DNA of 64,000 nt from Gammaproteobacteria bacterium (GCA_028281365.1 JANQJZ010000013.1:3632-67631); one strand, 5' to 3'. Numbered from the stretch's first letter, positions 5,423 through 35,835 are shown. The notes: generated by a model not told the origin, from the letters alone. Numbers and translations: made by a program.

Positions 5423-5425
5423 TGT

Positions 5426-7102
5426 TTACTCTGTTAAATAATTTTTTATCGCATCAAGTTGCATGGGTTTAAATTTCGTTAACTCTACCGGTAGTTCGAC
5501 ACCCTGTTTTTGTATGACATGTATTCGATTTAATACCGCAGCCCCGAATAAAATATTCATTGCAACCGTCACCGCATCACGGTTCTTTGGTTCCGACAGA
5601 AATGTATCTTTAGTCCATTCATTAAATGCACCCATTGCAGGTCCACACCAGACCTGATAATCAACCTTACGTTCTTCAACGCCGGCATTGGCCCAACGCG
5701 ATGACAAACCAAGATACCAGCGAAATATTAAAGCCATTTTATGTTTTGGATTTTTCTTTGCTTTTTCAACTTGTGATGGATCACGATCATTAAAGAATTC
5801 TTCAGTGTTTTGCCAAACCTCTTCCATGGTCATCTTAAAGATCGTTTTTTCAAGTTTGGTTTTCTCAGCTTCAGGGATCGCTTCAATTGAAGCGTATTGT
5901 TTATAAATGTCATAGAGTTTATTACCACGCATTGCGAACATCGTGCCACGCTTCAATACCTGAAGCTTTACACCCATTTCAAACATATCGACAGCGGGGG
6001 CCATGGTGACATCGGCCTGTTCTGCCTCTGCCAGCATTTCCCTGACAATATCTGATGAACCGGATTCCTTGCAAGCCTGATTCACCGTACCCGTCACAAC
6101 ATAAGCAGCACCCATGGCAAAGGCACCAAGCGCTGATGCCGGCGTTGAAATACCACCTGCTGCACCCACCCGAAGTTTATCTTTATACTTATATATAGAC
6201 TGTATCTGATCGCGTAATGCCAATATGGTTGGCAACAAGGTAATCACCGGCCGGTTATCAGTATGTCCACCTGAATCAGCTTCAACAGTCAAGTCCTGTG
6301 CCATTGGAATATATTGCGCAAGTTCAGCTTCTTCTGCTGTTATTTCACCCTGCTCTATTAATTGATTTAATAATTTTTCAGGTGGCGGGCTAAACCATTT
6401 TTCTGCAAGCTCAATACGTGAAGCCTTGGCTATAATGCGATTGGGTACAACAATATTTCCTTTACCGTTTTTATGAATACCTGTTACACGATATTTAACG
6501 ACAGGTAATGTTAATTTCATGTAAGCAGATGTCTCTACAAGTTTTACTCCATACTTTATATATAGATCGACGACAGCTTGCTCATGACCCTTTTCATTCG
6601 GGCTATAGATAAGGTTAAAACAATAAGGGTTATCTCCAAGTGAGCTTTGTAATTCTTTAATCGCATTTTCAATTTCATTTAACGATAAACCAGCCGCACC
6701 AAATGACGCCAGCATTCCTGCATTAGCAATCGCCTTCACTAATTTTACTGATGCAATACCATTTGCCATCGACCCTGTCATATAGGGGTAACTAAGCCGA
6801 TAGTCCTGACAAAACGATTGATCGCCAAGTGCATTAATTGTTTGTTTTGGCGCAATACCCAGCAGTGGATAAGAGTTATCTTTATTACTGTTTTCATTAA
6901 GCGCAACAGTGCCGCCTGATGCAATGGATATCTTTGCTGCGTTTTTAACCAAACAAAATGGCATATCAAGTCGCAGCAGATATTCTGGCAAATTATCCAG
7001 CTTAGCCAGGCTTGAATCACTGTTCGATTGCCAGTAACCAAGGGAATGTTTATTTGACTCCAGGCTCTTTGCTGGAGCGACTATTTCTGGAAGTGAACTC
7101 AC
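5426..7102 (-). CDS. pfaD: PfaD-like trans-acting enoyl reductase (2-nitropropane dioxygenase/FMN-dependent ER family)
   Basis: 558-aa ORF, about 540 aa expected for PfaD. Glycine-rich FMN-barrel signature (GAAGGISTP, AFAMGAAYVVTGTVNQ). Stop lies 4 bp upstream of the pfaA start, suggesting translational coupling. Confidence 0.75.
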   Translation of the reverse strand: MSSLPEIVAPAKSLESNKHSLGYWQSNSDSSLAKLDNLPEYLLRLDMPFCLVKNAAKISIASGGTVALNENSNKDNSYPLLGIAPKQTINALGDQSFCQDYRLSYPYMTGSMANGIASVKLVKAIANAGMLASFGAAGLSLNEIENAIKELQSSLGDNPYCFNLIYSPNEKGHEQAVVDLYIKYGVKLVETSAYMKLTLPVVKYRVTGIHKNGKGNIVVPNRIIAKASRIELAEKWFSPPPEKLLNQLIEQGEITAEEAELAQYIPMAQDLTVEADSGGHTDNRPVITLLPTILALRDQIQSIYKYKDKLRVGAAGGISTPASALGAFAMGAAYVVTGTVNQACKESGSSDIVREMLAEAEQADVTMAPAVDMFEMGVKLQVLKRGTMFAMRGNKLYDIYKQYASIEAIPEAEKTKLEKTIFKMTMEEVWQNTEEFFNDRDPSQVEKAKKNPKHKMALIFRWYLGLSSRWANAGVEERKVDYQVWCGPAMGAFNEWTKDTFLSEPKNRDAVTVAMNILFGAAVLNRIHVIQKQGVELPVELTKFKPMQLDAIKNYLTE

Positions 7103-7363: not shown

Positions 7364-8443
7364 ATGAAGTCCAGAGAGAACTACCAGACCCAATTAGACG
7401 ACGATGCCTACCAGAATGAGATCCTGCAGCATGTTTCCAGGACCTTTGCATTAACCATCCCTGAACTTCCAGACCCACTTTGCCGGGTCGTTTCAAATGC
7501 CTATTTGCTCTGTCGAATCGCCGATACGATTGAGGATGATAAATCCATGTCAGCTGAGGCGAAGCGGGAGTTCGCCGAACAATTTATCGAGGTTGTTAAG
7601 GGAACTGAAGATTCGAAAGACTTTTCTGAGAGCCTGTTTCCACTCCTGTCAGCAACGGCGACCGAAGCTGAACATGATCTGATTGCCAATACTGAACCCG
7701 TCATTCGCATAACACATAGTTTTAATCAACGGCAACGCGCTGCACTGGAACGATGTGTCGCAATTATGGCTGAAGGTATGGCACGCTATCAGGATGCCGA
7801 GACCCTGGATGGTGTCGCTGACCTGGATGATATGGGTCAGTATTGTTATTACGTTGCCGGGGTTGTCGGTGAGATGCTAACCGAGCTTTTTTGTGATTAT
7901 TCTGCCGAGATTGATAAGCACCGGGATGAATTGATGCAGCTGGCGGTATCTTTCGGACAAGGCTTGCAAATGACCAATATCCTGAAAGATATTTGGGAAG
8001 ATCACGCAAGGGGGGCTTGTTGGTTACCGCGTGATATCTTCGATAAATACGGTGTTGATATACGACATAAGCAAGCCGGGCAAGTTGCATCGGGTTTTGA
8101 TGAAGCCATGCTGGAGTTGCTTGGAGTTGCCCATGCTCATGTTTATAACGCCTTACGCTATACATTAATCATTCCCACCCATGAAAAAGGACTGCGCCGG
8201 TTCTGTTTGTGGGCACTTGGCATGGCTGTATTGACACTGGATAAGATCCGACAGAACCCGGGATTTACGCAAGGGCAACAGGTAAAAATCAGCAGACGTA
8301 GCGTTAAGGCGACAATTTTCCTGACCAGTCTTTTTGTTGGCCAGGATCGAATTCTGAGTTATCTATTTCAGTTTTCCGGGCGGCATTTGCCTATGGCAAG
8401 TATTCATGAGAGACTTGATAGATCAGCTTTTTCCACACACTAA
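7364..8443 (+). CDS. sqs: Squalene synthase (eukaryote-type farnesyl-diphosphate farnesyltransferase, as in Methylococcus sqs)
   Basis: 359 aa. Motif MGQYCYYVAGVVGEMLTELF matches the SQS domain (YCHYVAGLVG). Aspartate-rich IADTIEDD. Sits immediately upstream of shc. Confidence 0.8.
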   Translation: MKSRENYQTQLDDDAYQNEILQHVSRTFALTIPELPDPLCRVVSNAYLLCRIADTIEDDKSMSAEAKREFAEQFIEVVKGTEDSKDFSESLFPLLSATATEAEHDLIANTEPVIRITHSFNQRQRAALERCVAIMAEGMARYQDAETLDGVADLDDMGQYCYYVAGVVGEMLTELFCDYSAEIDKHRDELMQLAVSFGQGLQMTNILKDIWEDHARGACWLPRDIFDKYGVDIRHKQAGQVASGFDEAMLELLGVAHAHVYNALRYTLIIPTHEKGLRRFCLWALGMAVLTLDKIRQNPGFTQGQQVKISRRSVKATIFLTSLFVGQDRILSYLFQFSGRHLPMASIHERLDRSAFSTH

Positions 8444-8546
8444 TTAACAAAAATCAGGGGAACTGTAGATGTTTATGGAAATTATATTTTCACCAGTTTT
8501 ACCTGATTCCAAAACTTGCAATAGGTCAATCTAAACCGTTATATCA

Positions 8547-10496
8547 ATGACTCTGGATACACAAAATGCAAATGCATCGAATTTGGTTATTGATGAATCT
8601 GCATCTCAAAATTTAGTCATCAATCTTGAAGAATCTATCCAGGCAGCCTGCGAAAAACTCCTGGATCAACAACACAGCGATGGTCATTGGGTTTATGAAC
8701 TGGAGGCAGATTGCACTATTCCTGCTGAATATATATTAATGAATCATTTCGTCGGTGAGATCGACGATGAAACAGAAGAAAAAATTGCACAATATTTACG
8801 TGACAACCAGACTGAAGAAGGTGGTTGGGCATTGTTTACCGGTGGTGACTTTGATATCAGTTGTTCAGTTAAAGCTTATTATGCGTTGAAACTGGTTGGC
8901 GATAATCCTAAAGAAGAACATATGATCAGGGCCAGGAATTTGATCCTGAATCATGGTGGTGCAGCACATAGTAATGTGTTTACCCGAATTACGATGGCTT
9001 TGTTCGGACAGGTACCCTGGCGTGCAACGCCCTTTATTCCTGCTGAAGTTATCATTTTACCAAAATGGTTCCCTTTCCATATCGACAAGGTATCTTACTG
9101 GTCACGTACTGTTATGGTACCTTTATTTGTTTTATGTACCATGAAACCACTGGCTGTTAATCCACGTGGTGTTGATATTAGAGAACTATTTATTGTCCCG
9201 CCGGAAGACGAACAACATTATTTTAAAGTAACAACAGCCTTAAACCGTGCATTTTTAATGCTCGACCATGTTGGTCGTATAATTGAAAAACTGGTACCAA
9301 AATTTGTACGTCAATACTCCATTCGTAAATGTGAACAGTGGTTTCTTGCAAGGATGAATGAAGACCATGGTATCGGCGGAATTTTTCCCGCTATGGTTAA
9401 TGTATTCGAATCGCTTGTTGTGCTTGGTTACCCAAAAGAACACCCAACACGTATTAAGGCACGTAAGGCAATTGATGCTTTGCTAACAAAACGCGGTAAT
9501 ACAAAGTATGTACAACCTTGCGTATCTCCCGTCTGGGATACCTGCCTTGCCAGCCAAACCATGATCGAAACCGAAACCGAAAATAACATCACCAGGGAAA
9601 TTGAACACGGACTTGACTGGCTCAAGGAACGTCAGCTTAGTGATGAGCCCGGTGACTGGCGTATCCCTCGCCCTAATCTGGCAGGTGGTGGATGGGCATT
9701 CCAATATAGTAATTATTATTACCCTGATCTGGATGATACTTCCATGGTTGCCTGGGCAATGCACCGTACAGGTCTGGAAAAATACGCTGAACCAATTGAA
9801 CGGGCAGCTAACTGGGTGGCAGGTATGCAATCGAATGGCGGTGGTTTTGGCTCATTTGAAGTAAACAATACCCAGTATTATTTAAATGCTATTCCGTTCG
9901 CTGATCATGGTGCGCTTCTGGATCCACCTACTGCAGATGTAACAGGCCGTTCAATTGCCCTGCTAAGTCTTGCCGATAAGGAAAAATATGCAACGAATAT
10001 TAAGGACGCGATAAATTATTTAAAAGAAGAACAGGAAGATGATGGTTCATGGTTCGGCCGTTGGGGCACCAACTATATTTATGGCACCTGGTCAGTGCTT
10101 ACTGCATTAGAGATTGCAGGTGAAGATCCTGAACAGCCTTATATACGTAAAGCTGTAGAATACTTGCAAGACATGCAAAATGAAGATGGTGGCTGGGGAG
10201 AAAGTAATGACAGTTATTACCCACCGCGTCATCGACGACCTTATAGAAGTACCGCCTTTCAGACTGCATGGGCGCTGTTATCATTATTAGCGGCAGGTGA
10301 AGCTGAATCTGACACAGTTATAAAAGGTATTAAGTATTTAATATCGGCGCAATCTTCAGATGGTCACTGGTATGATGATAGTTATACTGCACCAGGCTTT
10401 CCACGTGTGTTCTATTTAAAATATCATGGTTACACAAAATATTTTCCACTTTGGGCATTGGCCCGCTATCGTAATATCACGCAATACGAATCTTGA
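8547..10496 (+). CDS. shc: Squalene-hopene cyclase
   Basis: 649 aa. Multiple QW repeats (GGW, DGHW, DGSW). Catalytic DxDDT motif present as DLDDTSMV. Confidence 0.9.
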   Translation: MTLDTQNANASNLVIDESASQNLVINLEESIQAACEKLLDQQHSDGHWVYELEADCTIPAEYILMNHFVGEIDDETEEKIAQYLRDNQTEEGGWALFTGGDFDISCSVKAYYALKLVGDNPKEEHMIRARNLILNHGGAAHSNVFTRITMALFGQVPWRATPFIPAEVIILPKWFPFHIDKVSYWSRTVMVPLFVLCTMKPLAVNPRGVDIRELFIVPPEDEQHYFKVTTALNRAFLMLDHVGRIIEKLVPKFVRQYSIRKCEQWFLARMNEDHGIGGIFPAMVNVFESLVVLGYPKEHPTRIKARKAIDALLTKRGNTKYVQPCVSPVWDTCLASQTMIETETENNITREIEHGLDWLKERQLSDEPGDWRIPRPNLAGGGWAFQYSNYYYPDLDDTSMVAWAMHRTGLEKYAEPIERAANWVAGMQSNGGGFGSFEVNNTQYYLNAIPFADHGALLDPPTADVTGRSIALLSLADKEKYATNIKDAINYLKEEQEDDGSWFGRWGTNYIYGTWSVLTALEIAGEDPEQPYIRKAVEYLQDMQNEDGGWGESNDSYYPPRHRRPYRSTAFQTAWALLSLLAAGEAESDTVIKGIKYLISAQSSDGHWYDDSYTAPGFPRVFYLKYHGYTKYFPLWALARYRNITQYES

Positions 10497-11221
10497 GTAA
10501 AATCGGGGTCATTGCTGCCTTACCGGTTGAAGCAAGATGTCTCTATCCGGAGAAACTTGACATAGCTTCACCAGCAGAGATTCATTCGGATATTTTTTTA
10601 TGTCTCAGCGGCATCGGAACTGAATCAGCATATACAGCAATAGAACAATTATTAAGCCTGGAAATCGATGCATTAGTCAGTTGGGGAGTTGCAGGCGCTC
10701 TTGATCCGTCATTAAAAGCTGGTGATTTATTAATCGCTGACTCCGTAATTATATCCGACAAGAATTTTCAGACATCATCCGATTGGCTGGTCAATATTAA
10801 AAACTACTTCCTGAATATATCACTTAACCCTGTAATCGCACCTATTGCATCAATTGATGCAATGTCTATCACGAACAACGATAAAACTCTTTTACATAAC
10901 AATACTGGTGCCCTGGCGGTAGATATGGAAAGTGCTGCAATTGCTGATATTTCAAGCAAACACAATCTGGATTTTATTGTGATTCGGGCAATTGCCGATG
11001 AAATAGATACTCCTATTCCTGAAGTTGTAACAAAATACACCAATGCACTGGGTCAACCGGATTTTATTCCTTTTGTAATTTCCTGCCTGAAGAATCCCCG
11101 GCAAATTAAGGAACTGATTAAATTGGCAAAATGCTACAATAAATCAATTAAAACGCTTAAACATTGTGCTTACGATTTAAAAAAGGAACATTTTCTCTAT
11201 AATACACAGCGTTTTGACTAG
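10493..11221 (+). CDS. hpnG: Hopanoid-associated nucleosidase HpnG (MTA/SAH nucleosidase-PNP family)
   Basis: 242 aa. PNP_UDP-like N-terminus KIGVIAALPVEA. Start overlaps the shc stop (ATGA). Position after shc matches hpnG synteny. Confidence 0.7.
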   Translation: MSKIGVIAALPVEARCLYPEKLDIASPAEIHSDIFLCLSGIGTESAYTAIEQLLSLEIDALVSWGVAGALDPSLKAGDLLIADSVIISDKNFQTSSDWLVNIKNYFLNISLNPVIAPIASIDAMSITNNDKTLLHNNTGALAVDMESAAIADISSKHNLDFIVIRAIADEIDTPIPEVVTKYTNALGQPDFIPFVISCLKNPRQIKELIKLAKCYNKSIKTLKHCAYDLKKEHFLYNTQRFD

Positions 11222-11264
11222 GCTATTTTTTTAACTCTCTATATATTTACCAGGCAACACCATA

Positions 11265-12011
11265 ATGAAATTAAGTACAGAGCAAATTGAAGAATTTAAA
11301 TCTACAGGCTTTCTCGTAGTACGGAATCTTTATGATACGGATGAAATTAAAGACATTACTGCGTGGACGGAAGAAGTCGCTAATTATCCGGAAGTACCGG
11401 GAAAATATATGATGTTTTTTGAAGAAAGTAAACTTGAGCCAGGCAAACGAATACTGTCCCGCATGGAAGATATTGAGCCCTTCCATCAGGGTTTGAGCGA
11501 ATTGTTTGTTAAAGGCAAGATTCAACAAATTACATCACAACTTTTTGATGATGAAGCCATTCTATTTAAAGACAAAATTAATTTTAAAATGCCAGGTGGT
11601 GATGGTTTCAAGGCACACCAGGATGTCCAGGCTGGATGGGACCGTTACGGCAAATTACATATAACTGCATTGGTAAGTATCGATTCATCTACTATTGAAA
11701 ATGGTTGTCTTGAGGTTGCAGGTGGCTACCATGATAAGGGACTGATTGGTGAATCATGGAAACCGCTTGAAGAAGATGCCCTGGATTATATGCCAGTCCC
11801 GACTGAACCTGGCGATGCCGTCTTTTTTGATTCATATGCACCACATCGTTCCAAACCAAACATGACAAATGAACAACGCCGGGTCTTATACGTTACTTAC
11901 AATGCTGCAGCTGAAGGTGATCATCGTCGACGATATTATGATGATAAGCGACTTAGCTACCCGCCGGATATAGAACGCGATCCTAATAAAGAATACGTCT
12001 TCAGAGTATAA
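11265..12011 (+). CDS. Phytanoyl-CoA dioxygenase (PhyH) family Fe(II)/2-oxoglutarate oxygenase
   Basis: 248 aa. HxD (KAHQDV) and distal His (YAPHRS) facial-triad residues with PhyH-like spacing. Embedded between hpnG and hpnN. Confidence 0.6.
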   Translation: MKLSTEQIEEFKSTGFLVVRNLYDTDEIKDITAWTEEVANYPEVPGKYMMFFEESKLEPGKRILSRMEDIEPFHQGLSELFVKGKIQQITSQLFDDEAILFKDKINFKMPGGDGFKAHQDVQAGWDRYGKLHITALVSIDSSTIENGCLEVAGGYHDKGLIGESWKPLEEDALDYMPVPTEPGDAVFFDSYAPHRSKPNMTNEQRRVLYVTYNAAAEGDHRRRYYDDKRLSYPPDIERDPNKEYVFRV

Positions 12012-12269: not shown

Positions 12270-14879
12270 ATGAATGAACAGCACTTACCATTCATAGAAA
12301 AACTTGTTACCCGCTGGGTTGAATTTACAGAACGTTATTCAACAGGCGTCGTTGTTGGTATCTTCATCCTGACAATATTTTCCATTCTTTTTATTAAAGA
12401 AAACCTGGGAATGAGTACCAGTACAAAAAATATGTTATCCGAAGAATTACCATGGCGGCAATTGGATTTGGAAGATGAAAAACTGTTCCCGCAATTTTTA
12501 AACAATATACTAATCGTTATAGATGCGAATACGCCTGACCAGGCTATCGACAGTGCCAATGAAATCTTCAGTGTATTGAACAGAGATTCAAAATATATAA
12601 ATGATATTTATTATCCATCTTCATTACCCTATTTTCAGCAGTCAGCCTTTTTGTTTCTTGACCTGGATGAACTTCAGGATCTGGCCGATCGACTGGCTGC
12701 TATACAGCCATTCCTTGGCACCCTGATGCAGGATAAAAACCTGCGGGGACTGTTTAATATGTTAAGTGATGCTTTAACTGCTAAACAGGATGGCGAGGAT
12801 ATAGATATAAAACCATTGCTGGAAGAGATAAATCGCGTATTTCAAAATGATGATTATTACATCTCCTGGCAAAAGTTAATGAATGCCGATGCAGATAAAG
12901 AACCTCCCTATCGTGAATTTATTGTTGTTCAGGTAAATGATATCAATGATGATATTTTGCCGGGAGAAAAGGTTCTTACACAAATCAGATCCGTCATAAA
13001 AGAGACAGAAGCATATAAGGAAAAAACGATAAACGTTAGATTGACAGGCGGTATACCACTTTCTAACGAAGAACTTAAAAGTGTATCAAAGGCCAACATT
13101 CAAGCCATTGTCATTTCACTAATTCTGGTTTCGATTATTCTGGTTGTGGGCCTTGGCTCTGGCTGGCTGGTTATTTCCTGCTTAATAACATTAATAACCG
13201 GCCTGATTGTAACAACTGCGTTTGCAACACTCACTGTAGGTGAATTAAACCTGATTTCAGTTGCCTTTGCTGTGTTATATATTGGGCTTGGCATTGATTT
13301 CGCAATTCACCTGACGCTTCGATACCGTGAAGAGCTTGTAAAAGGTACGAATAAAAAAGACCTGCTAAAATTAACCACAAAACGAATATATCGTTCCTTA
13401 TTACTTTGTGCCGTTTCAACTGCTATTGGTTTTTATTCCTTTATTCCGACTGACTATCAAGGTGTTGCGGAACTGGGCTGGATCGCGGGTAGTGGCATGT
13501 TCATTAGTATTTTTTTTACTTTTACATTACTCCCCGCTTTATTAAGTCTAAAACAAAATAATCTCCTAAGTGAAAAAGTATCTGCCAGGAATAATGTTTT
13601 CTTGTTATGGTTGGGTAAATTCTCCTGCCAGTATTCCAGACAAATATTAATGCTGACATTTATAGTTACTATCATCATTTTAACTCAAATAGACAGGATT
13701 AAATTCGATACCAATACCCTCAATCTACAGGATCCTGAAAACGAATCCGTTCAAACCTATCGGGATCTCCTTGGTGACAGTAATACTTCTCCGTGGAATA
13801 GTATTTTGCTAAAACGGGGTAAAGAAGAAACCACTAGAGTTATCCAGCAATTGGAAACCCTGCCATTGGTCGATAATGTAATCTGGCTGGAAGATCTTTT
13901 GCCTGAGGGGCAGGAAGAAAAACTCTTCATCATTGACGAGATGAATCTTTTTATGGGACAGCTCGATACAAGCTCAAACCCGGGTTCAGTTGAAGAAAAT
14001 GAACGTAAAAAGTCGATAATAAAATTAACTGAACAATTAAACGACTATTCTGATCCGTCCATTCAAACCGAGCTACATGAATTAAATAATCATTTATTAC
14101 ATCTGTTAAACCAAAATCCGGACAATTCTTTACTGGTTAAGCTTGAAAATAAAATGCTGAAAAACCTGGATGGTCGGCTTGATGCGTTATCTTATGCGCT
14201 TGCAGCTGAAGAACTCGAGCTCGAAGATATACCTGCAGAAATACATGATCGTTGGCTAAATAATAATTATTACAGGATACAGATAACTCCAAGAGAAAAC
14301 CTGAATGACAATATTGCAATGAAAAACTTTGTTGAGCTCATCCAGTCTCATGATAAACAGGTAATAGGTTCACCTGTCATCAAAATTGAGGCAGGCAAAG
14401 CAGTCGTTACGGCTTTTAGAGATGCGTTTAGCTATGCATTAATTGCAATCGCCTTGTTATTACTATTCCTGATAAAAATCAAGACGGATGCAGCAATCAT
14501 TCTTGTTTCCGTTTTGATTGGTGCAATCTTTACTTGTGGTTTCATGTTGCTATTCAATATGCCACTTAACTTTGCCAATATTATTGGTCTGCCATTATTG
14601 CTTGGTATAGGTGTTGATAGTGGTATTCATATTACTGATCGATTTAGACAGGATGGAAATAACAATCAAAATATCTATTTGACCAGCTCTTCGCGTGGTG
14701 TGATTGTCAGTTCACTGACAACGATATGCAGTATCAGTAATCTTGCCTTTTCCTCCCATCAAGGCACCGCCAGCATGGGTATACTTTTAACCACAGGTCT
14801 TGCGTCGATGATGATTTCGACTATGATAATCCTGCCTGCATTTCTAATATGGCAGCAATCAATAAAAGGCAATAAATGA
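12270..14879 (+). CDS. hpnN: Hopanoid transporter HpnN (RND/MMPL superfamily)
   Basis: 869 aa. Two 6-TM bundles, each followed or preceded by a large periplasmic loop, typical of the RND/MMPL fold. Located in the hopanoid cluster. Confidence 0.8.
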   Translation: MNEQHLPFIEKLVTRWVEFTERYSTGVVVGIFILTIFSILFIKENLGMSTSTKNMLSEELPWRQLDLEDEKLFPQFLNNILIVIDANTPDQAIDSANEIFSVLNRDSKYINDIYYPSSLPYFQQSAFLFLDLDELQDLADRLAAIQPFLGTLMQDKNLRGLFNMLSDALTAKQDGEDIDIKPLLEEINRVFQNDDYYISWQKLMNADADKEPPYREFIVVQVNDINDDILPGEKVLTQIRSVIKETEAYKEKTINVRLTGGIPLSNEELKSVSKANIQAIVISLILVSIILVVGLGSGWLVISCLITLITGLIVTTAFATLTVGELNLISVAFAVLYIGLGIDFAIHLTLRYREELVKGTNKKDLLKLTTKRIYRSLLLCAVSTAIGFYSFIPTDYQGVAELGWIAGSGMFISIFFTFTLLPALLSLKQNNLLSEKVSARNNVFLLWLGKFSCQYSRQILMLTFIVTIIILTQIDRIKFDTNTLNLQDPENESVQTYRDLLGDSNTSPWNSILLKRGKEETTRVIQQLETLPLVDNVIWLEDLLPEGQEEKLFIIDEMNLFMGQLDTSSNPGSVEENERKKSIIKLTEQLNDYSDPSIQTELHELNNHLLHLLNQNPDNSLLVKLENKMLKNLDGRLDALSYALAAEELELEDIPAEIHDRWLNNNYYRIQITPRENLNDNIAMKNFVELIQSHDKQVIGSPVIKIEAGKAVVTAFRDAFSYALIAIALLLLFLIKIKTDAAIILVSVLIGAIFTCGFMLLFNMPLNFANIIGLPLLLGIGVDSGIHITDRFRQDGNNNQNIYLTSSSRGVIVSSLTTICSISNLAFSSHQGTASMGILLTTGLASMMISTMIILPAFLIWQQSIKGNK

Positions 14880-15487
14880 ATATAAGTGATAAACCCTGGG
14901 ACGCTCGAATAGCATACCGATTAGTCTATCCATTGCGTAATACATTTATTACGCCAAATTACCTGACATCTTTACGTCTGCTGTGCGGGATTATTTCATT
15001 CGTTTTCCTGTCCTTAGGTGAATATATATACAGCAATATCGGTGCTTTATTCTTTGTGCTATCAAACTTTCTTGACCACACGGACGGTGAATTGGCGCGT
15101 ATCACAGGTAACACTAGTAAAAAAGGACATTACTTTGATCTGGTTTCCGATGCGTTGGTCAACATCTTACTTTTCCTGGGTATCGGTTTTGGTTTAATGA
15201 AGACTGATCTTGGTGTTTATGCCGGTATTATGGGGGGAATTGCCGGCTTATCCGTAGCTACAATATTTCATATGCGTAATGAGATTGAAAAGCAGATAGG
15301 GAAACAAATGGCCCGCCAACCTAACAAGGCCGGCGTAGAAGCCGAGGATGTACTGTATCTATTGCCTGTCGTGACACTTTTACAACTTGATTATTATTTC
15401 CTGTTTTTGGCATGCTTCGGTGCGCCTGCCTTTTGTTTATGGGTAACGAAAGATTACTTCTCAAGAAAAATCCTTTCTAAAATATGA
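14876..15487 (+). CDS. CDP-alcohol phosphatidyltransferase family protein
   Basis: 203 aa membrane protein with the complete signature D-x2-D-G-x2-A-R-x8-G-x3-D-x3-D (DHTDGELARITGNTSKKGHYFDLVSD). Overlaps hpnN stop and hpnA start by 4 bp each (ATGA), so it is translationally coupled. Confidence 0.75.
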   Translation: MNISDKPWDARIAYRLVYPLRNTFITPNYLTSLRLLCGIISFVFLSLGEYIYSNIGALFFVLSNFLDHTDGELARITGNTSKKGHYFDLVSDALVNILLFLGIGFGLMKTDLGVYAGIMGGIAGLSVATIFHMRNEIEKQIGKQMARQPNKAGVEAEDVLYLLPVVTLLQLDYYFLFLACFGAPAFCLWVTKDYFSRKILSKI

Positions 15488-16470
15488 AAACCTTAATAAC
15501 CGGGGCAAATGGATTTGTCGGTTCATCTGTTCTAAGAGAATTACTAAATAAAGGTATCAATATCAGGGCACTTGTCAGACCCGGTTCCGACAGGCGTAAT
15601 TTTGATGGCCTGGATATTGAAATATTTGAAGGCGATCTGCTTGATGTAAATTCATTAAAAAAAGCCGTGATCGGATGTGGTCATTTATATCATGTTGCAG
15701 CTGATTATCGTCTATGGATACCTGATCCGGAATCTATGTATAAAACCAATGTTGATGGAACCCGAGAACTGGTTCTTGCAGCATCTGAAACCGGTATGGA
15801 TAAAATTGTCTATACCAGTAGCGTTGCTACTCTGGGCATCAATAAAGATGGTACACCGTCAGATGAAACCACTCCGTCATCAGTCGAAGATATGATTGGA
15901 CATTACAAACGATCAAAGTTTCTTGCAGAACAGGAAGTAAAAAAATTAATAACCGAAAAACAATGTCCGGTAACTATTGTTAACCCATCAACGCCTGTTG
16001 GACCAAGAGATATAAAACCCACGCCTACTGGCAGAATTGTACTCGATACGATACGTAAGCGAATGCCAGCCTATGTTGATACAGGATTAAATATCGTACA
16101 TGTAGATGATGTGGCAAAAGGGCACTTATTGGCCATGGAAAAAGGCATAGCTGGTGAACGATATATTCTTGGTGGTGATAATATGACGCTTGCATCAATA
16201 CTTGAGTATATTTGCGTTAGTGAAGATCTGACACCGCCGAAAATTAAACTTCCCCATAATCTTATAATACCAATTGCCTGGTTTATGGAACGAATCGCTG
16301 ATATTACACATAAAGAGCCACGAGCTACCGTGGAAAGTGTTCGAATGTCAAAAAAACTGATGTTTTTTTCCAGTGAAAAGGCGAAAAAGGAATTAGGTTA
16401 TCAATCGCGTCCGGGTGTAGAGGGATTAAAGGATGCGATTGACTGGTTTAACAAGGAAAATTACCGTTAA
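15484..16470 (+). CDS. hpnA: Hopanoid-associated sugar epimerase HpnA (NAD-dependent epimerase/dehydratase)
   Basis: 328 aa. N-terminal Rossmann motif TGANGFVGS. Catalytic YxxxK (YKRSK). Follows hpnN. Confidence 0.75.
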   Translation: MKTLITGANGFVGSSVLRELLNKGINIRALVRPGSDRRNFDGLDIEIFEGDLLDVNSLKKAVIGCGHLYHVAADYRLWIPDPESMYKTNVDGTRELVLAASETGMDKIVYTSSVATLGINKDGTPSDETTPSSVEDMIGHYKRSKFLAEQEVKKLITEKQCPVTIVNPSTPVGPRDIKPTPTGRIVLDTIRKRMPAYVDTGLNIVHVDDVAKGHLLAMEKGIAGERYILGGDNMTLASILEYICVSEDLTPPKIKLPHNLIIPIAWFMERIADITHKEPRATVESVRMSKKLMFFSSEKAKKELGYQSRPGVEGLKDAIDWFNKENYR

Positions 16471-16651
16471 AATGAAATGTGCCATCCATGGCACAATTAT
16501 CCGTGACCAAACCCTTAAGTATTAAACTTAAACTAAATCACAAACTACTTCCTTGTGGTTCTGAATATAATCATTTTTATAAATTATTTCTTCCTCTGAA
16601 AAAAGGATTTTTTTTAGGATTTAATTACTCAATTATGATGATTTTTTAACC

Positions 16652-18355
16652 TTAAATTAAAAAATAGAACAAAGTGAGAATAAACAAACCTAATAAAATG
16701 AATATATTTCTTGCTATTGATAAGCGAAAAGCCAAGACATTTGATACTTCTTTGATTGGTATCTTCGTATACAAATGACATAGTCCTGTTTGGAATTGTT
16801 CTAAATAATTAAACAGTACGTTAAAAATATAAGGTCCCGGCTTTCTGTAAAACCAGTCAAAATCAAGACTAATCGTTAATGTACGTTGCATCCATGGCAA
16901 CATGACAAAAAACGCCAACCCTGAAAACAAAAGCAATTGAAGTTGTGTAACAACATGGGCGGCTGTATAAGGAACATACTGAACTGGATAAGGAAGCATG
17001 TCATACAGGACTTCAGGAAAAACTCCTAATAAAATACAAGTAATTGCAAAAAGTATCATACCAATTTGCATATTAAGCGGTGGATCATCAGGTCTTAAAC
17101 CACTGTCTTTTTGAAAAAAAACAAACCACGGAAATTTAATACCTGCATGTAGAAATACGCCTGCTGATGCAGCTTGTAATAATAGCCATACCCATATTAT
17201 ATGTTCATCAACTGATGCCTGGGTAATCATTGATTTGCTGACAAAACCTGACGTCAATGGGAATGAAGAAATTGCCAGTGCACCTATAATTCCACAAAGT
17301 GCGGTTACCGGCATTGACTGAATCAGACCACCCAAATCGGTGCATTTACGTTTACCAGTCATATACAAGACCGACCCGGCTGACATTAACAATAATGCCT
17401 TATAGATAATGTGGGTAAATGCATGAGCCGCTGCACCATTAAGTGCCATCTCGGTACCGATACCTATTCCACAAACCATAAATCCAACCTGGTTAATAAT
17501 GCTATAGGCCAGGATACGGCGCATGTCATTTTCCAGTAACGCATAGATAATGCCATAGAAGATCATGAACAAACCGATGTAGACCAGTAAATCAGTCCCC
17601 GGGAAGCCCCGTAACAAGACATAAACAGCTGTCTTGGTAGTGAATGCACTCAGGAAAACCATACCGCTGAAGGATGTCTCTGGATATGCATCTGCCAACC
17701 AGGCACTTAAAGGTGGTGCACCTGCATTTAACAGGAAGCCACTTAGAATTAACCATGTGGCGACACTATTTGCCTGCATATGCGTAAATAACAATGAACC
17801 GGTTTCGTTAACATATGCAGTAATACCACACATTAAAACAACCCCACCCAGTAAATGGATCGTGATATAACGCATACCTGCCCGCCATGACCCATTATTG
17901 TTAGCAGACCAGATAATCAATGTAGAAGCCAGTGCCATTAACTCCCAAAAAATAAATAAACTAATCAGATCGCCAGCAAGCACAACTGACATGGCACCAC
18001 CTGCATAAATAAAAGCTGCAGCCAGCTCGGTTGATTTTGCCTGTTTACAACAAAACAGACTGCCCGTAAAAACAGTGATCGCAAATACAGTAAGAAAAAG
18101 ACGGCTCAGGGTATCCAGATTTATTAATATCAATTCATATTCAAGATATTGATAATTACAGGCATTACCCAATGGCATACTCCAGATACTGAGTAATGCA
18201 AGACAAGGTATAAGGAGTATAAACAACGTCCTCCTTGTCCCATTGAATAATGGAATAAAAAATCCTGAAAGGATTAGCAATAGACCAGGATGAAAAAGAC
18301 TACATGTCATAGTAATCATCCTTACGTTTAATGAAAACACCCAGTATTTTTGCAA
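16652..18355 (-). CDS. Complex I ND2/ND4/ND5-family (NuoL/M/N, MrpA/D-like) proton-translocating membrane subunit with about 100-aa C-terminal extension
   Basis: 567 aa polytopic protein. Internal region resembles antiporter-like subunits (e.g. HAFTHIIYKALLLM). The true start is probably at an internal Met, because the N-terminus in the track overlaps the upstream small ORF. Confidence 0.65.
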   Translation of the reverse strand: MQKYWVFSLNVRMITMTCSLFHPGLLLILSGFFIPLFNGTRRTLFILLIPCLALLSIWSMPLGNACNYQYLEYELILINLDTLSRLFLTVFAITVFTGSLFCCKQAKSTELAAAFIYAGGAMSVVLAGDLISLFIFWELMALASTLIIWSANNNGSWRAGMRYITIHLLGGVVLMCGITAYVNETGSLLFTHMQANSVATWLILSGFLLNAGAPPLSAWLADAYPETSFSGMVFLSAFTTKTAVYVLLRGFPGTDLLVYIGLFMIFYGIIYALLENDMRRILAYSIINQVGFMVCGIGIGTEMALNGAAAHAFTHIIYKALLLMSAGSVLYMTGKRKCTDLGGLIQSMPVTALCGIIGALAISSFPLTSGFVSKSMITQASVDEHIIWVWLLLQAASAGVFLHAGIKFPWFVFFQKDSGLRPDDPPLNMQIGMILFAITCILLGVFPEVLYDMLPYPVQYVPYTAAHVVTQLQLLLFSGLAFFVMLPWMQRTLTISLDFDWFYRKPGPYIFNVLFNYLEQFQTGLCHLYTKIPIKEVSNVLAFRLSIARNIFILLGLFILTLFYFLI

Positions 18356-18626
18356 ATATGATCATAGCGACACAGGTTAAAAACCCGTAAACAGCATGAA
18401 AAGCAAAAATACTTTCTATCCTGAAATGAGGATGTAGTGTAACGACCAGTTCAATTAATACGGTCAATAACAGAACAACAGCCGCCGCTACCCATATTTT
18501 TTTAATTGATGATTTTTTATAAAACCAGTTTTGTTTCATGACACGTTGCCTGTCAGTAGAGTAAGTATCTGCATTGCATAAACGGGATATAAAAATAATA
18601 CGATGGTCATTAAAGCTGTAAAGCAA
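18300..18626 (-). CDS. Small membrane protein (about 79 aa from Met at about 18539) between antiporter-like genes
   Basis: The ORF overlaps both neighbours. Starting at MKQNWFYKK gives a 2-TM protein with an ATGA overlap with the upstream gene end at 18536. No family recognised. Confidence 0.35.
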   Translation of the reverse strand: MLYSFNDHRIIFISRLCNADTYSTDRQRVMKQNWFYKKSSIKKIWVAAAVVLLLTVLIELVVTLHPHFRIESIFAFHAVYGFLTCVAMIIFAKILGVFIKRKDDYYDM

Positions 18627-20002
18627 AGTGCCAATACAATTGGCAACGGTGCTTCCCCGTTTGAGATCGTATTGTGTGATTTCGCTTCTTTAAAAAAAGC
18701 CATATACACAATAGGTAAAAAATAGGCGGCATTTAACAATGTACTTATAACAATTACCGTAACAGCGAACCAGGATTCAATAGTAAATGCACCCTGTAAA
18801 ATAAACCATTTACTTAAAAATCCTGCTGTCGGTGGCACACCAATCATGGATAGACTACCAATTGCAAAAGCCCCCATAGTCCATGGCATAGCTCTACCTA
18901 TACCATCAAGCTCACTGACCTTTGTTTTCCCTGAAGCCGTATAGATTGAACCTGCTGCAAAGAACAAGGTAATTTTACCAAAGGCGTGAGCAAGAATATG
19001 CATTGCCGCACCCATAATAGATATGGGCACAAGTATCGCTGTTGCCATAATCACATAAGATAATTGGCTAATAGTTGAATATGCAAGACGTCTTTTTAAA
19101 TTATCTGATTTTAATGCGATTATTGAAGCAATAATGATTGTCGCACCAGACAAATAGAGTAAAAAATTTAATTCTATAATGTCGGATAAAAGTGCTGGAG
19201 AAAATATATAGCTGACTATTTTAACAATACTAAACACACCTGCCTTTACAACAGCAACAGCATGCAATAATGCACTGACCGGTGTTGGAGCAACCATCGC
19301 GGCCGGTAGCCACTTGTGCATTGGCATTAATGCCGCCTTGCCAATTCCATAAGCATATAACAGTAACAGCAACAATATTATACTGTTGTCATTAACGTGA
19401 TTAAGTATGCCGCCTGTTTTAAAGTCAGTTGTATCAGCTAAAACATTTGTCCATATAATTGCTGACAGAAAAAAACAAATCGAAGTGCTTAAGAGTATAC
19501 CAAGGTAAACACGTCCGCCATGGATTGCATCCTGAGTCCCTTTGTGTGTCACCAGGGGATAAGTTGATAAGGTCAGGACTTCATAAAATATAAACAACGT
19601 AACCAGATTTCCAGCAAATGCAACACCTATAGTGCTAAAAATAGCGATAGCAAAAAAGATATAAAACCGTGTCTGGTTACTTTCATTGTTACCACGCATA
19701 TAACCTATCGAATAGATCGAATTTATTAACCAGAGTAGTGATGCAATACAGGCAAATAACATCCCCAGCGGTTCCAGTTCAAAATAGATTTCAAGACCCG
19801 GAAAGATTTCAAACAATAGTAAGCCAGGCGAATTTCCATCCAGTACCAGTGGAAGAATAGAATAAACAACTATAATCAGAGCCACGGCAGACAATAAGGT
19901 AATGGCTTCTCTCAGGTTTGGCAGTTTGTTTGCCAAAGCAATAAGGACTGTAGCCGCCAGGGGAATAATCAAAGCTATTAATATAAGGTTCCCGGAAGAC
20001 AT
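18536..20002 (-). CDS. MrpD/NuoN-like antiporter subunit (ND2/4/5 family)
   Basis: 488 aa with 14 predicted TM segments. Family motifs such as LLHAVAVVKAGVF and WLPAAM(V)APTPVSALLHA. Confidence 0.75.
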   Translation of the reverse strand: MSSGNLILIALIIPLAATVLIALANKLPNLREAITLLSAVALIIVVYSILPLVLDGNSPGLLLFEIFPGLEIYFELEPLGMLFACIASLLWLINSIYSIGYMRGNNESNQTRFYIFFAIAIFSTIGVAFAGNLVTLFIFYEVLTLSTYPLVTHKGTQDAIHGGRVYLGILLSTSICFFLSAIIWTNVLADTTDFKTGGILNHVNDNSIILLLLLLYAYGIGKAALMPMHKWLPAAMVAPTPVSALLHAVAVVKAGVFSIVKIVSYIFSPALLSDIIELNFLLYLSGATIIIASIIALKSDNLKRRLAYSTISQLSYVIMATAILVPISIMGAAMHILAHAFGKITLFFAAGSIYTASGKTKVSELDGIGRAMPWTMGAFAIGSLSMIGVPPTAGFLSKWFILQGAFTIESWFAVTVIVISTLLNAAYFLPIVYMAFFKEAKSHNTISNGEAPLPIVLALCFTALMTIVLFLYPVYAMQILTLLTGNVS

Positions 20003-20007
20003 GTTTG

Positions 20008-21486
20008 TTAATTTACCAGCCCATACGCAATATCTTTAGCAAAGCCGATATTGACGGATGTTTCTGTACCAAAATAAAGATTGGCCAAAACAAAAATAAA
20101 TAATGCAATATATAATAACCGGGGTGCATTCTGGGTATTATTATTGCTCAATTCAACAGCAGGAGTTTTAAAGTACGCTGCCTCCACTACTTTCCAGACA
20201 TAGAGGATAGAAAGTATTGATGAAAACACTATTATAATTACCAGGCTCCAATAACCTGCAGAAAAAGAAGCCTGTATCAATAACCACTTACTGGTAAAAC
20301 CTGCAGTTAAAGGAATGCCTATTAAACTTAACCCACCGAACAAAAAGCAAGCCGAAGTGTAAGGCATAAATTTTGAAATACCATGAAGCTGCGAAATCAT
20401 CTCAGTGTTATAACGATAAATAATGCAGGCAACTGATAAGAACAACGCGACTTTAATAACAGCATGATTAAACACATGTGCGAGACTGGCTGCCAGACCA
20501 AGTTCCGTTGCTATCGAGATTCCGAGCACCATATAACCTATCTGTGCAATACTCGAATAAGCCAACAAGCGCTTGATACTATCCTGTCTTATCGCCTGAA
20601 TCGAGCCATAAAGAACTGCACCACAAGCAAGAATCATTAACAGATCATTTAATACCAGCTGATTGAAACTGAATTCATAACCAAACAGCGAATAGATAAA
20701 CCGGATTAATGCATAGATAAAAACCTTGGTAGTCGTGCCCGCAAGAAATGTAGATACGATTACAGGTGAATAAGTATAAGCGTCCGGCAGCCATAAATGT
20801 AATGGAAATATTGCTGCTTTTATAGCAATACCAATAGTAAAAAATATTAAGGCAGTAATTACTGTATTTGTATTCTCTACATTGCCTAAACGATCAGACA
20901 GATCAAATATATTCAATGTACCAGTAACAGCATATAGCAGACCAACAGATATCAGAATAAAACTGGCACCGATTGTTCCTAATATTAGATATTTGAAAGC
21001 AGCATAAAGACATCGTCGATCACGGCTAATACTGATCATTGCATAAGATGACAACGACGCAATCTCAATAAATACAAACAGGTTAAATGCATCACCCGTC
21101 ATGACTACACCAAGTAACCCGGTCAGATTTAACAGGAAGGCTGCATAAAAAAGATATAATCGATCAGATGCAATTTCAGATGCCATACTTTCCCTGGCAG
21201 CAATAACGACCACTGCAGCAACTGCATTAATAATTAATAGCATATAGGCGGTTAATAAATCGACATGGTATTCAATACCAGCAGGGGCAACCCACCCACC
21301 TAGTGCATAGGTGATATTATTTCCCCCGGACACTGAGGTAAGCAATAAACAGGCAATTATAAAAGTAATGCAACTTACGAGTGATGCTAATACCCAGCTC
21401 AATGTGCCATTGCGCAAAATGACACAGACCGGGGCAAATATAAGAGGTATAACAACTTGTAGTATAGGCAAATGATTACTTAACAC
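20008..21486 (-). CDS. MrpD/NuoM-like antiporter subunit (ND2/4/5 family)
   Basis: 492 aa. HLWLPDAYT..PVIVSTFLAGTTTK motif typical of NuoM/MrpD. Lies 5 bp from the downstream paralogue. Confidence 0.75.
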   Translation of the reverse strand: MLSNHLPILQVVIPLIFAPVCVILRNGTLSWVLASLVSCITFIIACLLLTSVSGGNNITYALGGWVAPAGIEYHVDLLTAYMLLIINAVAAVVVIAARESMASEIASDRLYLFYAAFLLNLTGLLGVVMTGDAFNLFVFIEIASLSSYAMISISRDRRCLYAAFKYLILGTIGASFILISVGLLYAVTGTLNIFDLSDRLGNVENTNTVITALIFFTIGIAIKAAIFPLHLWLPDAYTYSPVIVSTFLAGTTTKVFIYALIRFIYSLFGYEFSFNQLVLNDLLMILACGAVLYGSIQAIRQDSIKRLLAYSSIAQIGYMVLGISIATELGLAASLAHVFNHAVIKVALFLSVACIIYRYNTEMISQLHGISKFMPYTSACFLFGGLSLIGIPLTAGFTSKWLLIQASFSAGYWSLVIIIVFSSILSILYVWKVVEAAYFKTPAVELSNNNTQNAPRLLYIALFIFVLANLYFGTETSVNIGFAKDIAYGLVN

Positions 21487-25792: not shown

Positions 25793-25803
25793 ATCTTAAC
25801 TCG

Positions 25804-27324: not shown

Positions 27325-27350
27325 TATTCTTGTTATTTTCCGCTATCCAT

Positions 27351-30478: not shown

Positions 30479-30509
30479 TCAATTTTCCGCAAAAATATTA
30501 TTGTTTTTA

Positions 30510-31001: not shown

Positions 31002-31003
31002 AA

Positions 31004-35829: not shown

Positions 35830-35835
35830 AGTGAT

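Follow-up and report, generated by a model that had tools for sequence, protein, structure and literature searches.

A phosphonolipid-type CDP-alcohol phosphotransferase within a hopanoid operon: hopanoids as possible acceptors of a phosphonate head group

Introduction

The hopanoids of bacteria may be capped by a head group that contains a carbon-phosphorus bond. This idea is put forward because a transferase of the phosphonolipid type is found repeatedly fused with hopanoid genes. One such case is found in the 64-kb stretch of gammaproteobacterial DNA analysed here (the window), in which a gene for a CDP-alcohol phosphotransferase-family enzyme is located between hpnN and hpnA. The model which we propose is that this gene codes for the enzyme which attaches the head group to the lipid in the 2-aminoethylphosphonate (AEP) "phosphonolipid" pathway, that it has been recruited into the hopanoid operon, and that the side chain of bacteriohopanetetrol (BHT) is the acceptor. 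Taken as a whole the model is tentative, and we consider its chances to be somewhat below even.

The transferase gene

The gene is located on the plus strand at 14876..15487, starts with ATG and codes for a membrane protein of 203 amino acids, which is 99% identical to the database entry MCG8378858.1. The translation contains the catalytic signature D67xxD70G71xxA74R75x8G84xxxD88xxxD92 (15074..15151, plus strand), and all eight signature residues (D67, D70, G71, A74, R75, G84, D88 and D92) are invariant in an alignment with 28 homologues. The signature of the PF01066 superfamily, D-x2-D-G-x2-A-R-x8-G-x3-D-x3-D, spans TM2-TM3. The protein scores 56.7 bits on the Pfam model PF01066 (cut-off 22), its AF2 model has six TM helices with a pLDDT of 91.7, and the top Foldseek match of the model is AF2299 (4o6n; TMq 0.77, probability 1.00). 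Judged by sequence and predicted fold, the protein belongs to the PF01066 CDP-alcohol phosphotransferases.

The ORF call, the translation and the junctions agree with the first-pass annotation of this DNA, which described a 203-aa gene with a complete motif and ATGA coupling on both sides. The stop codon of hpnN (TGA, 14877-14879) overlaps the start codon of the transferase gene (ATG at 14876) in the ATGA at 14876..14879, and the stop codon of the transferase gene (TGA, 15485-15487) overlaps the start codon of hpnA (ATG at 15484) in the ATGA at 15484..15487, both on the plus strand.

The same annotation also considered that the gene could be a generic pgsA/pssA paralogue found at unrelated loci in relatives. 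Relatives do occur away from hpn genes as well, and some are annotated as "phosphatidylglycerophosphate synthase" in the sources. A housekeeping paralogue of the pgsA/pssA type, present in the operon by chance, is nevertheless refuted by the NCBIfam scores, which are far too low for PgsA (TIGR00560 28.7 versus 109.1 bits; PRK10832 18.1 versus 304) and for PssA (TIGR00473 24.3 versus 107), and by a synteny with hpn and/or AEP genes that is conserved across phyla; we give it hardly any weight. Assignment as an AIP, PIP or DIPP synthase was rejected in the same way (NF040950 60.8 versus 180; NF045883 25.6 versus 170; NF041135 45.3 versus 580). The AIP and DIPP synthases are the nearest curated and structural neighbours of the transferase, yet its scores are far under their cut-offs.

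The surrounding operon and the partner oxygenase

The operon runs on the plus strand and contains upstream of the transferase gene a squalene synthase of the Sqs type (7364..8443; PF00494 203 bits; TIGR01559 128.6 bits, under cut-off), a squalene-hopene cyclase (8547..10496; TIGR01507 800 bits), an HpnG-like nucleoside phosphorylase with adenosylhopane as predicted substrate (10493..11221; TIGR03468 165.6 bits, the top match although under the cut-off of 187), a PhnY*-like 2OG/Fe(II) hydroxylase of the PhyH family (11265..12011; NF052437 204 bits, cut-off 500) and the RND hopanoid transporter HpnN (12270..14879; TIGR03480 843 bits, cut-off 752). Downstream follows the hopanoid-associated SDR HpnA (15484..16470; TIGR03466 498 bits, cut-off 368). 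According to these profile scores the genes flanking the transferase gene are genuine hpn genes. A palindromic hairpin, found in a consensus scan only, is located directly after the hpnA stop codon (16478..16495) where hpnA and the mrp operon converge, and is a possible end of the operon; a promoter/terminator scan from 7 to 17 kb gave no enrichment over shuffles.

The PhnY*-like oxygenase was overlooked in the first-pass annotation. Its match to NF052437 (methylphosphonate hydroxylase) covers the full length, and the H118-x-D120...H194 triad is intact and invariant. The protein is 61% identical to a Nostocales oxygenase (locus L039) which is located between the transferase and PntC-PepM, and hydroxylases of the PhyH type and of the HalD type, both with HxD triads, interchange at the same position of this module. 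The oxygenase is co-inherited with the transferase, and from its sequence it is a predicted phosphonate alpha-hydroxylase and the module partner of the transferase. The window thus retains two genes of a phosphonate module, the transferase gene and that of the PhnY*-like hydroxylase.

Relation to the phosphonolipid gene cluster

A "Group 1 phosphonolipid" or "Burkholderiales_CDP-OH" pepM core has been described (10.1101/2021.04.07.438883; PMC5987646), and the family is attributed to Yu et al. (2013, as cited in PMC5987646). In Burkholderiaceae and Nostoc the cluster consists of PepM-PntC, Ppd, AEP transaminase, a second PntC, a 2OG oxygenase and HpnL. It is the largest pepM cluster family and accounts for 36% of the pepM neighbourhoods in RefSeq (10.1101/2021.04.07.438883). 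The function of the cluster is itself a prediction, and so is its product, a lipid carrying (1-hydroxy-)2-AEP. The phosphonate literature reports no detected glycerolipid product, although the cluster is abundant and expressed; a single line hints at a possible "terpene-phosphonate". The transferase family was thus already on record in this literature, as the CDP-OH transferase belonging to the predicted cluster, which the first-pass annotation had missed.

The protein of the window shows 50-57% full-length identity to pepM-adjacent proteins from Nostoc, Nevskia, Caballeronia and MAGs, and in an NJ tree it forms one family with the transferases of pepM clusters. The gene order in Nostocales, Nevskia, Caballeronia and the MAGs is transferase - 2OG hydroxylase - (HpnL) - NTP transferase - PepM/NTP fusion - Ppd - class-V aminotransferase. 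The solved structure nearest to the NTP transferase of the module is the Treponema PntC-AEPT protein 6pd1. HpnL (LPG_synthase_TM; 353 bits on TIGR03476) is a core gene of the module; it was originally defined through its association with hopanoids. That the transferase is an orthologue of the phosphonolipid transferases of pepM clusters is held with high confidence.

Since the family is known from the phosphonate literature, an ordinary phospho-alcohol is less likely to be the transferred group than a CMP-activated phosphonate (2-AEP or 1-hydroxy-2-AEP). Transfer of a head group, as first proposed for this gene, is thus kept as a prediction while the ordinary phospho-alcohol loses ground. For a phosphonate donor in this particular organism we put the chances only slightly above even. 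In the window an HMM made from 48 NTP transferases of the module found no PntC at E<=10 and tblastn found none either, PepM, Ppd and AEP transaminase gave no tblastn matches in the 64 kb, and neither HpnL nor a HalD-type oxygenase was found there by profile HMMs or tblastn. The sole protein of the window with a PEP_mutase fold (54051-55382) is isocitrate lyase (383 bits), and by Pfam annotation the region 39.7-62.8 kb contains housekeeping genes only. The 8-10 kb flanks of the closest relatives are likewise without pepM, ppd, AEPT, PntC and HpnL. In a sister clade HpnL is found upstream of sqs (L045, L046, L049, L057, L061, L093 and L099). With pepM, ppd, AEPT and PntC missing from the window and from the flanks of its relatives, the donor in this lineage is one that we infer; the source contig is only 67.8 kb long, and the donor genes may therefore sit elsewhere.

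These missing genes are an argument for supposing that phosphonate use was lost in the lineage and that a phospho-alcohol, e.g., from CDP-ethanolamine, CDP-glycerol or CDP-inositol, is transferred to a hopanoid or to diacylglycerol. It is also in keeping with such a loss that the nearest models and structures are inositol-phosphate enzymes (AIP synthase at 60.8 bits, DIPPS, AF2299); every inositol and PgsA model, however, is far under its cut-off. This explanation is close to the one first proposed for the gene, and the oxygenase would then act elsewhere, e.g., on the hopanoid side chain. We find it unlikely: the transferase (50-57%) and the oxygenase (61%) are clearly orthologous to the pair in pepM clusters, the strongest curated match of the oxygenase is a phosphonate hydroxylase, and the missing genes may simply be located outside so short a contig.

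The polarity of the reaction could also be the reverse, with CDP-diacylglycerol as donor and the hydroxyl made by the oxygenase in 1-hydroxy-2-AEP as acceptor; the product would be phosphatidyl-HAEP, comparable to phosphatidylserine. The constant presence of a hydroxylase alongside the transferase would then be accounted for, and so would the ability of the clade of the window to dispense with a PntC. Most modules, however, carry two PntC, which implies a CMP-activated phosphonate, and in Foldseek the structural neighbours binding soluble CDP-alcohols outrank the CDP-DAG enzymes. The linkage to hopanoid genes would be left without explanation as well, and we consider the reverse reaction very improbable.

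Linkage to hopanoid genes

The transferase family was compared across 161 loci, and time and again it is found within hopanoid clusters. Gene order was analysed in 16 loci: 10 of them keep the arrangement hpnN-transferase-hpnA at 54-80% protein identity, and 5 more keep one side of it. The junction between the transferase gene and hpnA is the best-conserved junction of the family: outside the window, 14 loci have there either an overlap of 4 bp or no more than 4 bp between the two genes, and an overlap identical to that of the window is found in L001, L002, L045-L047, L049, L054, L057, L061, L006 and L008. In most hpn-linked loci hpnA adjoins the transferase gene, in either order. The arrangement exceeds what is expected by chance; the association with hopanoid genes, as already suspected from the window alone, is not accidental, since both the order and the hpn neighbours recur across loci.

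The two gene sets also occur joined. L116 and L118 carry a single co-directional string, sqs-shc-hpnG-hpnA-transferase-oxygenase-HpnL-PntC-PepM-Ppd-AEPT, similar strings are found in L156, L047 and L153, and L077 has hpnM-shc-hpnG-hpnN-NTP-transferase. With at least 8 kb of context, hpn genes are found beside the transferase gene in 11 of 15 sequence clusters (70% identity), and in the tree the hpn-linked transferases are spread over three distinct branches.

It should be noted that the linkage is not universal. Orthologues away from hpn genes are found in Paraburkholderia, most Nostoc and TARA contigs, two of the latter with a stand-alone transferase gene amid metal-resistance genes, and in Paraburkholderia and Caballeronia the phosphonate module does not adjoin shc. 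In Nostocales the transferase gene is often located downstream of a B12-rSAM gene named hopanoid C-2 methylase by IMG. The alternative that the Nostoc B12-rSAM protein is a phosphonate methyltransferase was rejected (75.6 bits versus 600 for the PhpK family; its 90% cluster in IMG is "hopanoid C-2 methylase"). This link carries little weight, as hopanoid C-2 methylase is an IMG name only.

The published surveys touch on the linkage indirectly. The presence of PepM correlates with SHC in Gammaproteobacteria with r = 0.43 (Table S7), a correlation in which Burkholderia acts as a phylogenetic confounder. Two recent papers on hopanoid genomics are, in their main texts, silent on any CDP-alcohol phosphotransferase, in agreement with the earlier claim that the hpn gene set has no such enzyme. 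The only entry for it there is a domain family without a name, "6", listed among the supplementary tables with a frequency of 1409 near shc (10.1101/2025.07.29.667474, Table S8); this is a domain-level count in a sheet where several "frequencies" look irregular, and it is not taken as evidence for the present subfamily. Family "6" is absent from the individual rows examined.

The main rival to a hopanoid acceptor, and the textbook alternative, is diacylglycerol (DAG). The enzyme would then be a conventional phosphonolipid synthase transferring (H)AEP from CMP-(H)AEP to DAG, and the clustering with hpn genes would be due to co-regulation, or to co-export by HpnN/HpnL, of lipids which harden the envelope. 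In eukaryotes there is precedent for the formation of such lipids from CMP-AEP and DAG by CDP-alcohol phosphotransferases. The phosphonate literature annotates the module in this way, Foldseek also recovers CEPT1/CHPT1, though more weakly, the module is separate from shc in Paraburkholderia and in most Nostoc loci, and clustering could mean co-regulation of two envelope lipids rather than one shared molecule. The glycerolipid, however, has never been detected although the cluster is abundant and expressed, and synthesis on DAG leaves unexplained both the conserved 4-bp coupling to hpnA and the repeated insertion among core hpn genes in three branches. We regard DAG as a rather unlikely acceptor; a hopanoid is our first choice, though a tentative one.

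A model for phosphonate transfer to hopanoids

In the model with a hopanoid acceptor PepM, Ppd and AEP transaminase would make AEP from genes outside the window, or AEP would be imported. The PhnY*-like oxygenase (11265-12011) would hydroxylate AEP at C-1, and a cytidylyltransferase of the PntC type would activate (H)AEP to CMP-(H)AEP. At the Asp-rich metal-binding motif of the transferase a lipid hydroxyl would attack the phosphorus of the phosphonate with release of CMP, giving lipid-O-P(O)(O-)-CH(OH)CH2NH3+. The hydroxyl would be one on an extended hopanoid side chain, in the simplest case that at C-35 of bacteriohopanetetrol, and this hopanoid would be supplied by Shc, HpnH, HpnG and possibly HpnA. 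The zwitterionic product would be flipped by HpnL in those relatives that have it and then moved outward by HpnN. The analysis shows the fold and motif of the transferase, its orthology to the transferases of pepM clusters, its co-inheritance with the oxygenase and its repeated physical fusion with hpn genes; who donates, who accepts and how the product is transported is what we infer.

Extended to the pepM family the model predicts that the product is a phosphono-hopanoid and not a glycerolipid: BHT, and its methylated or pentol variants too, with 2-AEP or 1-hydroxy-2-AEP as an ester on the side chain, HpnA supplying the acceptor alcohol and HpnL/HpnN flipping and exporting the product. This extension is somewhat more doubtful than the model for the window itself. 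To our knowledge the partner in characterised lipid-forming CDP-alcohol phosphotransferases is always a glycerolipid or of the ceramide type and never a triterpenoid, and we know of no published bacteriohopanepolyol survey with a phosphorus-containing hopanoid. A search of the literature on hopanoids together with phosphonate or aminoethylphosphonate found no such hopanoid, and literature searches brought up no genetic or chemical result on an effect of the transferase on the structure or transport of hopanoids.

If the acceptor is a hopanoid, it becomes understandable that no product has so far been detected for the largest pepM cluster family. It would give HpnL its first function and HpnA a testable one, after both have been unexplained for more than 20 years. 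A phosphorus-containing class would join the bacteriohopanepolyol biomarkers, and hopanoid producers, among them marine Gammaproteobacteria such as the present one, would be tied to the oceanic phosphonate cycle. A phosphono-hopanoid would be the first C-P-bonded lipid with a triterpenoid backbone, and the bacteriohopanepolyols would gain a new class. Should the acceptor be DAG, phosphonolipid and hopanoid synthesis would still be genetically coupled envelope traits.

Comparison with known systems

With the CDP-OH transferase of the Group 1 cluster the protein of the window shares the additional conserved motifs KPWDAR, ARQP and EAEDVLY; in both cases the transferase is paired with a 2OG hydroxylase, and HpnL is also carried by the sister clades. 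Unlike the Group 1 genes the gene of the window is placed between hpnN and hpnA, its hydroxylase is of the PhyH/PhnY* type and not of the HalD type, and the 64 kb are without PntC, PepM, Ppd, AEPT and HpnL.

On sequence and predicted structure the nearest enzymes appear to be the Archaeoglobus fulgidus proteins AF2299 and IPCT-DIPPS (4o6n, 4mnd), which bind soluble CDP-alcohols. They match best both in structure and in sequence, with the six-TM core and the catalytic motif in common, and they use a soluble CDP-alcohol from a partner cytidylyltransferase, which for the window is a prediction only. The identity, however, is only 17-22%, the protein of the window has no cytoplasmic domain, the NCBIfam models for DIPPS and AIP synthase are far under cut-off, and the partner genes of the family are phosphonate and not inositol genes.

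CEPT1/CHPT1 (8gyw, 8ero) resemble the transferase in the type of reaction proposed, in which a lipid alcohol receives the polar head group of a cytidine conjugate, and eukaryotic enzymes of this type make AEP phosphonolipids from CMP-AEP. They differ in being larger proteins with DAG as acceptor, and the structural match is far weaker (E about 0.03, TMq 0.57-0.59).

The last comparison is with the hopanoid side-chain enzymes HpnI/J/K, HpnO and HpnP/R and with HpnA/B/L/M, of which hpnA, hpnB, hpnL and hpnM are without an explained function in the hopanoid genomics papers. While no CDP-alcohol phosphotransferase has been given an hpn letter or a hopanoid function, the transferase gene is located in the same operon as genes of this set and is co-inherited with those of HpnN and HpnA, and HpnL is common to the hopanoid and the phosphonate gene sets.

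The transferase gene and its operon

The transferase is encoded at 14876-15487 on the + strand by an ORF of 203 aa with an ATG start. It matches PF01066 with 56.7 bits (Pfam, cut-off 22), and its translation holds the full CDP-alcohol phosphotransferase motif D67xxD70G71xxA74R75x8G84xxxD88xxxD92, which is invariant across 28 aligned homologues. The ORF upstream is HpnN (12270-14879, +; TIGR03480, 843 bits, cut-off 752) and the one downstream HpnA (15484-16470, +; TIGR03466, 498 bits, cut-off 368). Recomputing the junctions gave ATGA at both: the start shares the upstream TGA and the stop TGA shares the downstream ATG. The complete signature, the overlap on either side and the hopanoid-operon neighbours reported in the first-pass annotation are thus all confirmed. 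Upstream of hpnN the operon encodes an Sqs-type squalene synthase, a squalene-hopene cyclase (800 bits) and an HpnG-like phosphorylase.

From the 28-homologue alignment AlphaFold2 confidently predicts a membrane core of six helices (mean pLDDT 91.7, pTM 0.87). Among PDB structures the model resembles AF2299 (4o6n, TMq 0.77) and IPCT-DIPPS (4mnd) most closely, then PIP synthases; CEPT1/CHPT1 and PgsA match more weakly. A large protein collection holds about 1,800 relatives, the best 120 of which show 60-99% identity, a length of about 200 aa and generic names only. The transferase stays far under every curated cut-off of the PgsA, PssA, cardiolipin synthase, PIP synthase, AIP synthase and DIPPS models, the highest being AIP synthase with 60.8 bits against 180. 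That it is a generic housekeeping paralogue is effectively refuted by these scores and the conserved synteny, and we give this identity hardly any credence.

The window has a GC content of 39.6%. A PUFA/polyketide synthase locus (2-7102) adjoins the hopanoid operon and is divergent from it; it consists of a PfaD-family enoyl reductase (5426-7102, -; TIGR02814, 643 bits) followed on the - strand by a PfaA-like PKS ORF, 1808 aa or longer, which extends past the window start. On the other side a Mrp-type multisubunit cation/proton antiporter operon (16652-21830, -) converges on hpnA. The region 24362-39295 (-), read by eye from translations, is probably an NADH:quinone oxidoreductase (nuo) operon. 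A possible islet of restriction-modification or defence genes lies among housekeeping genes at 48295-51551 (+): adjacent D12-class N6-adenine and N6_N4_Mtase DNA methyltransferases, then a short ORF with no annotation (49852-50256) and a DUF6575/DUF7226 protein.

The phosphonate module

In Nostocales, Paraburkholderia, Caballeronia and Nevskia the orthologues, about 50% identical, do not adjoin shc. In their conserved string the transferase is joined by a HalD-like 2OG/Fe(II) oxygenase, in proteobacteria by HpnL (TIGR03476, 353 bits, cut-off 196), and by a free-standing NTP transferase, whose best solved relative is Treponema denticola PntC-AEPT (6pd1), then LicC. Nostocales, Nevskia, Caballeronia and several MAGs add a fusion of PEP mutase with a second NTP-transferase domain, a TPP-dependent decarboxylase and a class-V aminotransferase, together the canonical 2-aminoethylphosphonate (AEP) pathway. 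PepM, Ppd and AEPT (AEP transaminase) adjoin the module in Caballeronia and Nevskia and not in Paraburkholderia (L042 and other loci, about 8000-11300), where it is shortened to transferase-oxygenase-HpnL-PntC and followed by an MFS transporter and a gamma-glutamyltransferase.

The operon in the window also encodes a PhyH-family oxygenase (11265-12011), which the first-pass annotation did not connect with the transferase. Among curated models it matches methylphosphonate hydroxylase PhnY* best (204 bits over the full length, the equivalog cut-off of 500 not being reached), and its HxD...H iron triad is invariant. A 61%-identical orthologue lies between transferase and PntC-PepM in Nostocales HT-58-2 (L039). 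PhyH/PhnY*-like and HalD/BesD-like proteins are unrelated 2OG oxygenases, found in the same slot beside the transferase (window, L039, L024, L042). Since the PhyH type occupies this slot in L039, the two types, both with HxD triads, replace one another in the module, which looks like non-orthologous replacement. The window retains two module genes, transferase and oxygenase.

Linkage to hopanoid genes

Scanning a single genome of each species for the transferase gave 80 loci, whose neighbours were found by tblastn with the window proteins. The order sqs-(shc)-hpnG-oxygenase-hpnN-transferase-hpnA is kept in about 15 Gammaproteobacteria, 'Legionellales' and Pseudomonadota MAGs, with transferases 54-80% identical to that of the window. 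In 14 loci transferase and hpnA overlap by 4 bp or lie no more than 4 bp apart, and in eight the hpnN-transferase junction is as tight. Nostocales transferases are often preceded by a B12/radical-SAM/DUF4070 protein whose close relatives IMG names 'hopanoid C-2 methylase'; this is only suggestive of a further hopanoid link.

A metagenome scan gave 80 further loci. Two of these (L116, L118) read sqs-shc-hpnG-hpnA-transferase-oxygenase-HpnL-PntC-PepM/PntC-Ppd-AEPT on a single strand with short spacers; L156 reads hpnA..shc-hpnG..hpnN-transferase-oxygenase-HpnL-PntC-PepM-Ppd-AEPT, and L047 and L153 have sqs-hpnG-(hpnN)-transferase-hpnA, then HpnL and phosphonate genes. The hopanoid and phosphonate gene sets have been physically fused repeatedly. 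When 161 transferases were clustered at 70% identity (20 clusters) and the 15 whose context spans 8 kb or more were counted, hpn genes lay beside the transferase in 11, four of them also with AEP genes; two had AEP genes only and two neither. A neighbour-joining tree spreads the hpn-embedded loci over three separate branches.

Not every orthologue has such company. In two TARA contigs (L095, L096), which bear metal-resistance genes, a 55%-identical orthologue (match at 10001-10573) has no hpn or phosphonate genes within 10 kb; its neighbours are genes for an outer-membrane efflux protein, a multicopper oxidase and a methyltransferase, MerR/MerC-like genes and a TonB receptor gene.

A model for the reaction

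In CDP-alcohol phosphotransferases the acceptor hydroxyl attacks the cytidine-distal phosphorus of a cytidine-linked donor and CMP leaves; the intact motif is consistent with this reaction. With CMP-AEP or CMP-HAEP (1-hydroxy-2-AEP) as donor, the product would be a lipid phosphonate ester. We lean slightly towards such a donor in the window organism, and more strongly for the family overall. The reverse arrangement, CDP-DAG as donor and HAEP as acceptor, is very improbable.

Neither the 64-kb window, cut from a contig of 67.8 kb, nor the flanks of the closest relatives contain pepM, ppd, AEPT, PntC or HpnL, and hpnH is absent from the window. A CDP-alcohol other than a phosphonate could serve as donor in this clade, which we find unlikely; the oxygenase retained there is PhnY*-like. 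In a Desulfobacteraceae MAG (L077: MlaC/hpnM-shc-hpnG-hpnN-NTP transferase-transferase) neither oxygenase nor pepM is visible, so that lineage may have a different head group; a NUDIX hydrolase and a HAD phosphatase follow on the opposite strand (8647-10172, -). A survey of shc neighbourhoods (10.1101/2025.07.29.667474, Table S8) lists an unnamed fusion of CDP-alcohol phosphatidyltransferase and MobA-like NTP transferase (family 338, 2 occurrences); families of glycerol-1-phosphate dehydrogenase (641) and of nucleotidyl transferase (535) are frequent in it. These entries hint that hopanoid loci may be surrounded by further head-group chemistry with cytidine activation.

We favour as acceptor an extended hopanoid, for which the hydroxyl at C-35 of bacteriohopanetetrol (BHT) would be the simplest candidate, because the transferase is repeatedly inserted among core hpn genes, its translational coupling to HpnA is conserved, HpnL belongs to the module and a glycerolipid product of the module has never been found. 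Against it, we know of no triterpenoid acceptor for the superfamily, and no P-containing bacteriohopanepolyol was found in the literature searched. If the acceptor were DAG, the hpn clustering would be mere co-regulation; this is the leading rival, which we hold a little less probable than the full hopanoid chain. For the hopanoid acceptor, a source of the alcohol can be suggested. No role has been assigned to HpnA, an NAD(P)-dependent SDR. As the reductase converting ribosylhopane to BHT is also unidentified (PMC12583986), HpnA could plausibly, if speculatively, supply the acceptor alcohol. The full chain, in which the transferase would join a phosphonate head group onto a hopanoid, is put forward tentatively, at somewhat less than even chances.

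Comparison with known systems

The seven-gene core is known as the 'Burkholderiales_CDP-OH' group, the 'Group 1 phosphonolipid' of Yu et al., which makes up 318 of 882 analysed pepM neighbourhoods; its predicted product, a 1-hydroxy-2-AEP lipid, has never been chemically characterised (10.1101/2021.04.07.438883). A lichen Nostoc cluster has been drawn with 'CDP-alcohol phosphatidyltransferase', 'OG-Fe(II)', 'NTPT', pepM, ppd, AEPT and hpnL (PMC5987646). The family and its predicted 'phosphonolipid' role are thus already known, but neither has been characterised. The literature gives two independent hints of the hopanoid link. PepM and SHC presence correlate in Gammaproteobacteria with r = 0.43, a value confounded by Burkholderia (10.1101/2025.07.29.667474, Table S7). 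A survey of Acetobacteraceae genomes remarks on a frequent linkage of terpenoid genes with pepM, 'suggesting... an undiscovered terpene-phosphonate'; this one sentence (PMC8776678) and an unnamed supplementary-table row are all that we found in the literature on a transferase-hopanoid link. What is new is, first, the translationally coupled place between hpnN and hpnA, in an operon that also has a PhnY*-like hydroxylase, and second, that fusion with hopanoid clusters extends across the family. One concrete hypothesis thereby joins two questions, the product of the Group 1 phosphonate clusters and the roles of HpnL and HpnA.
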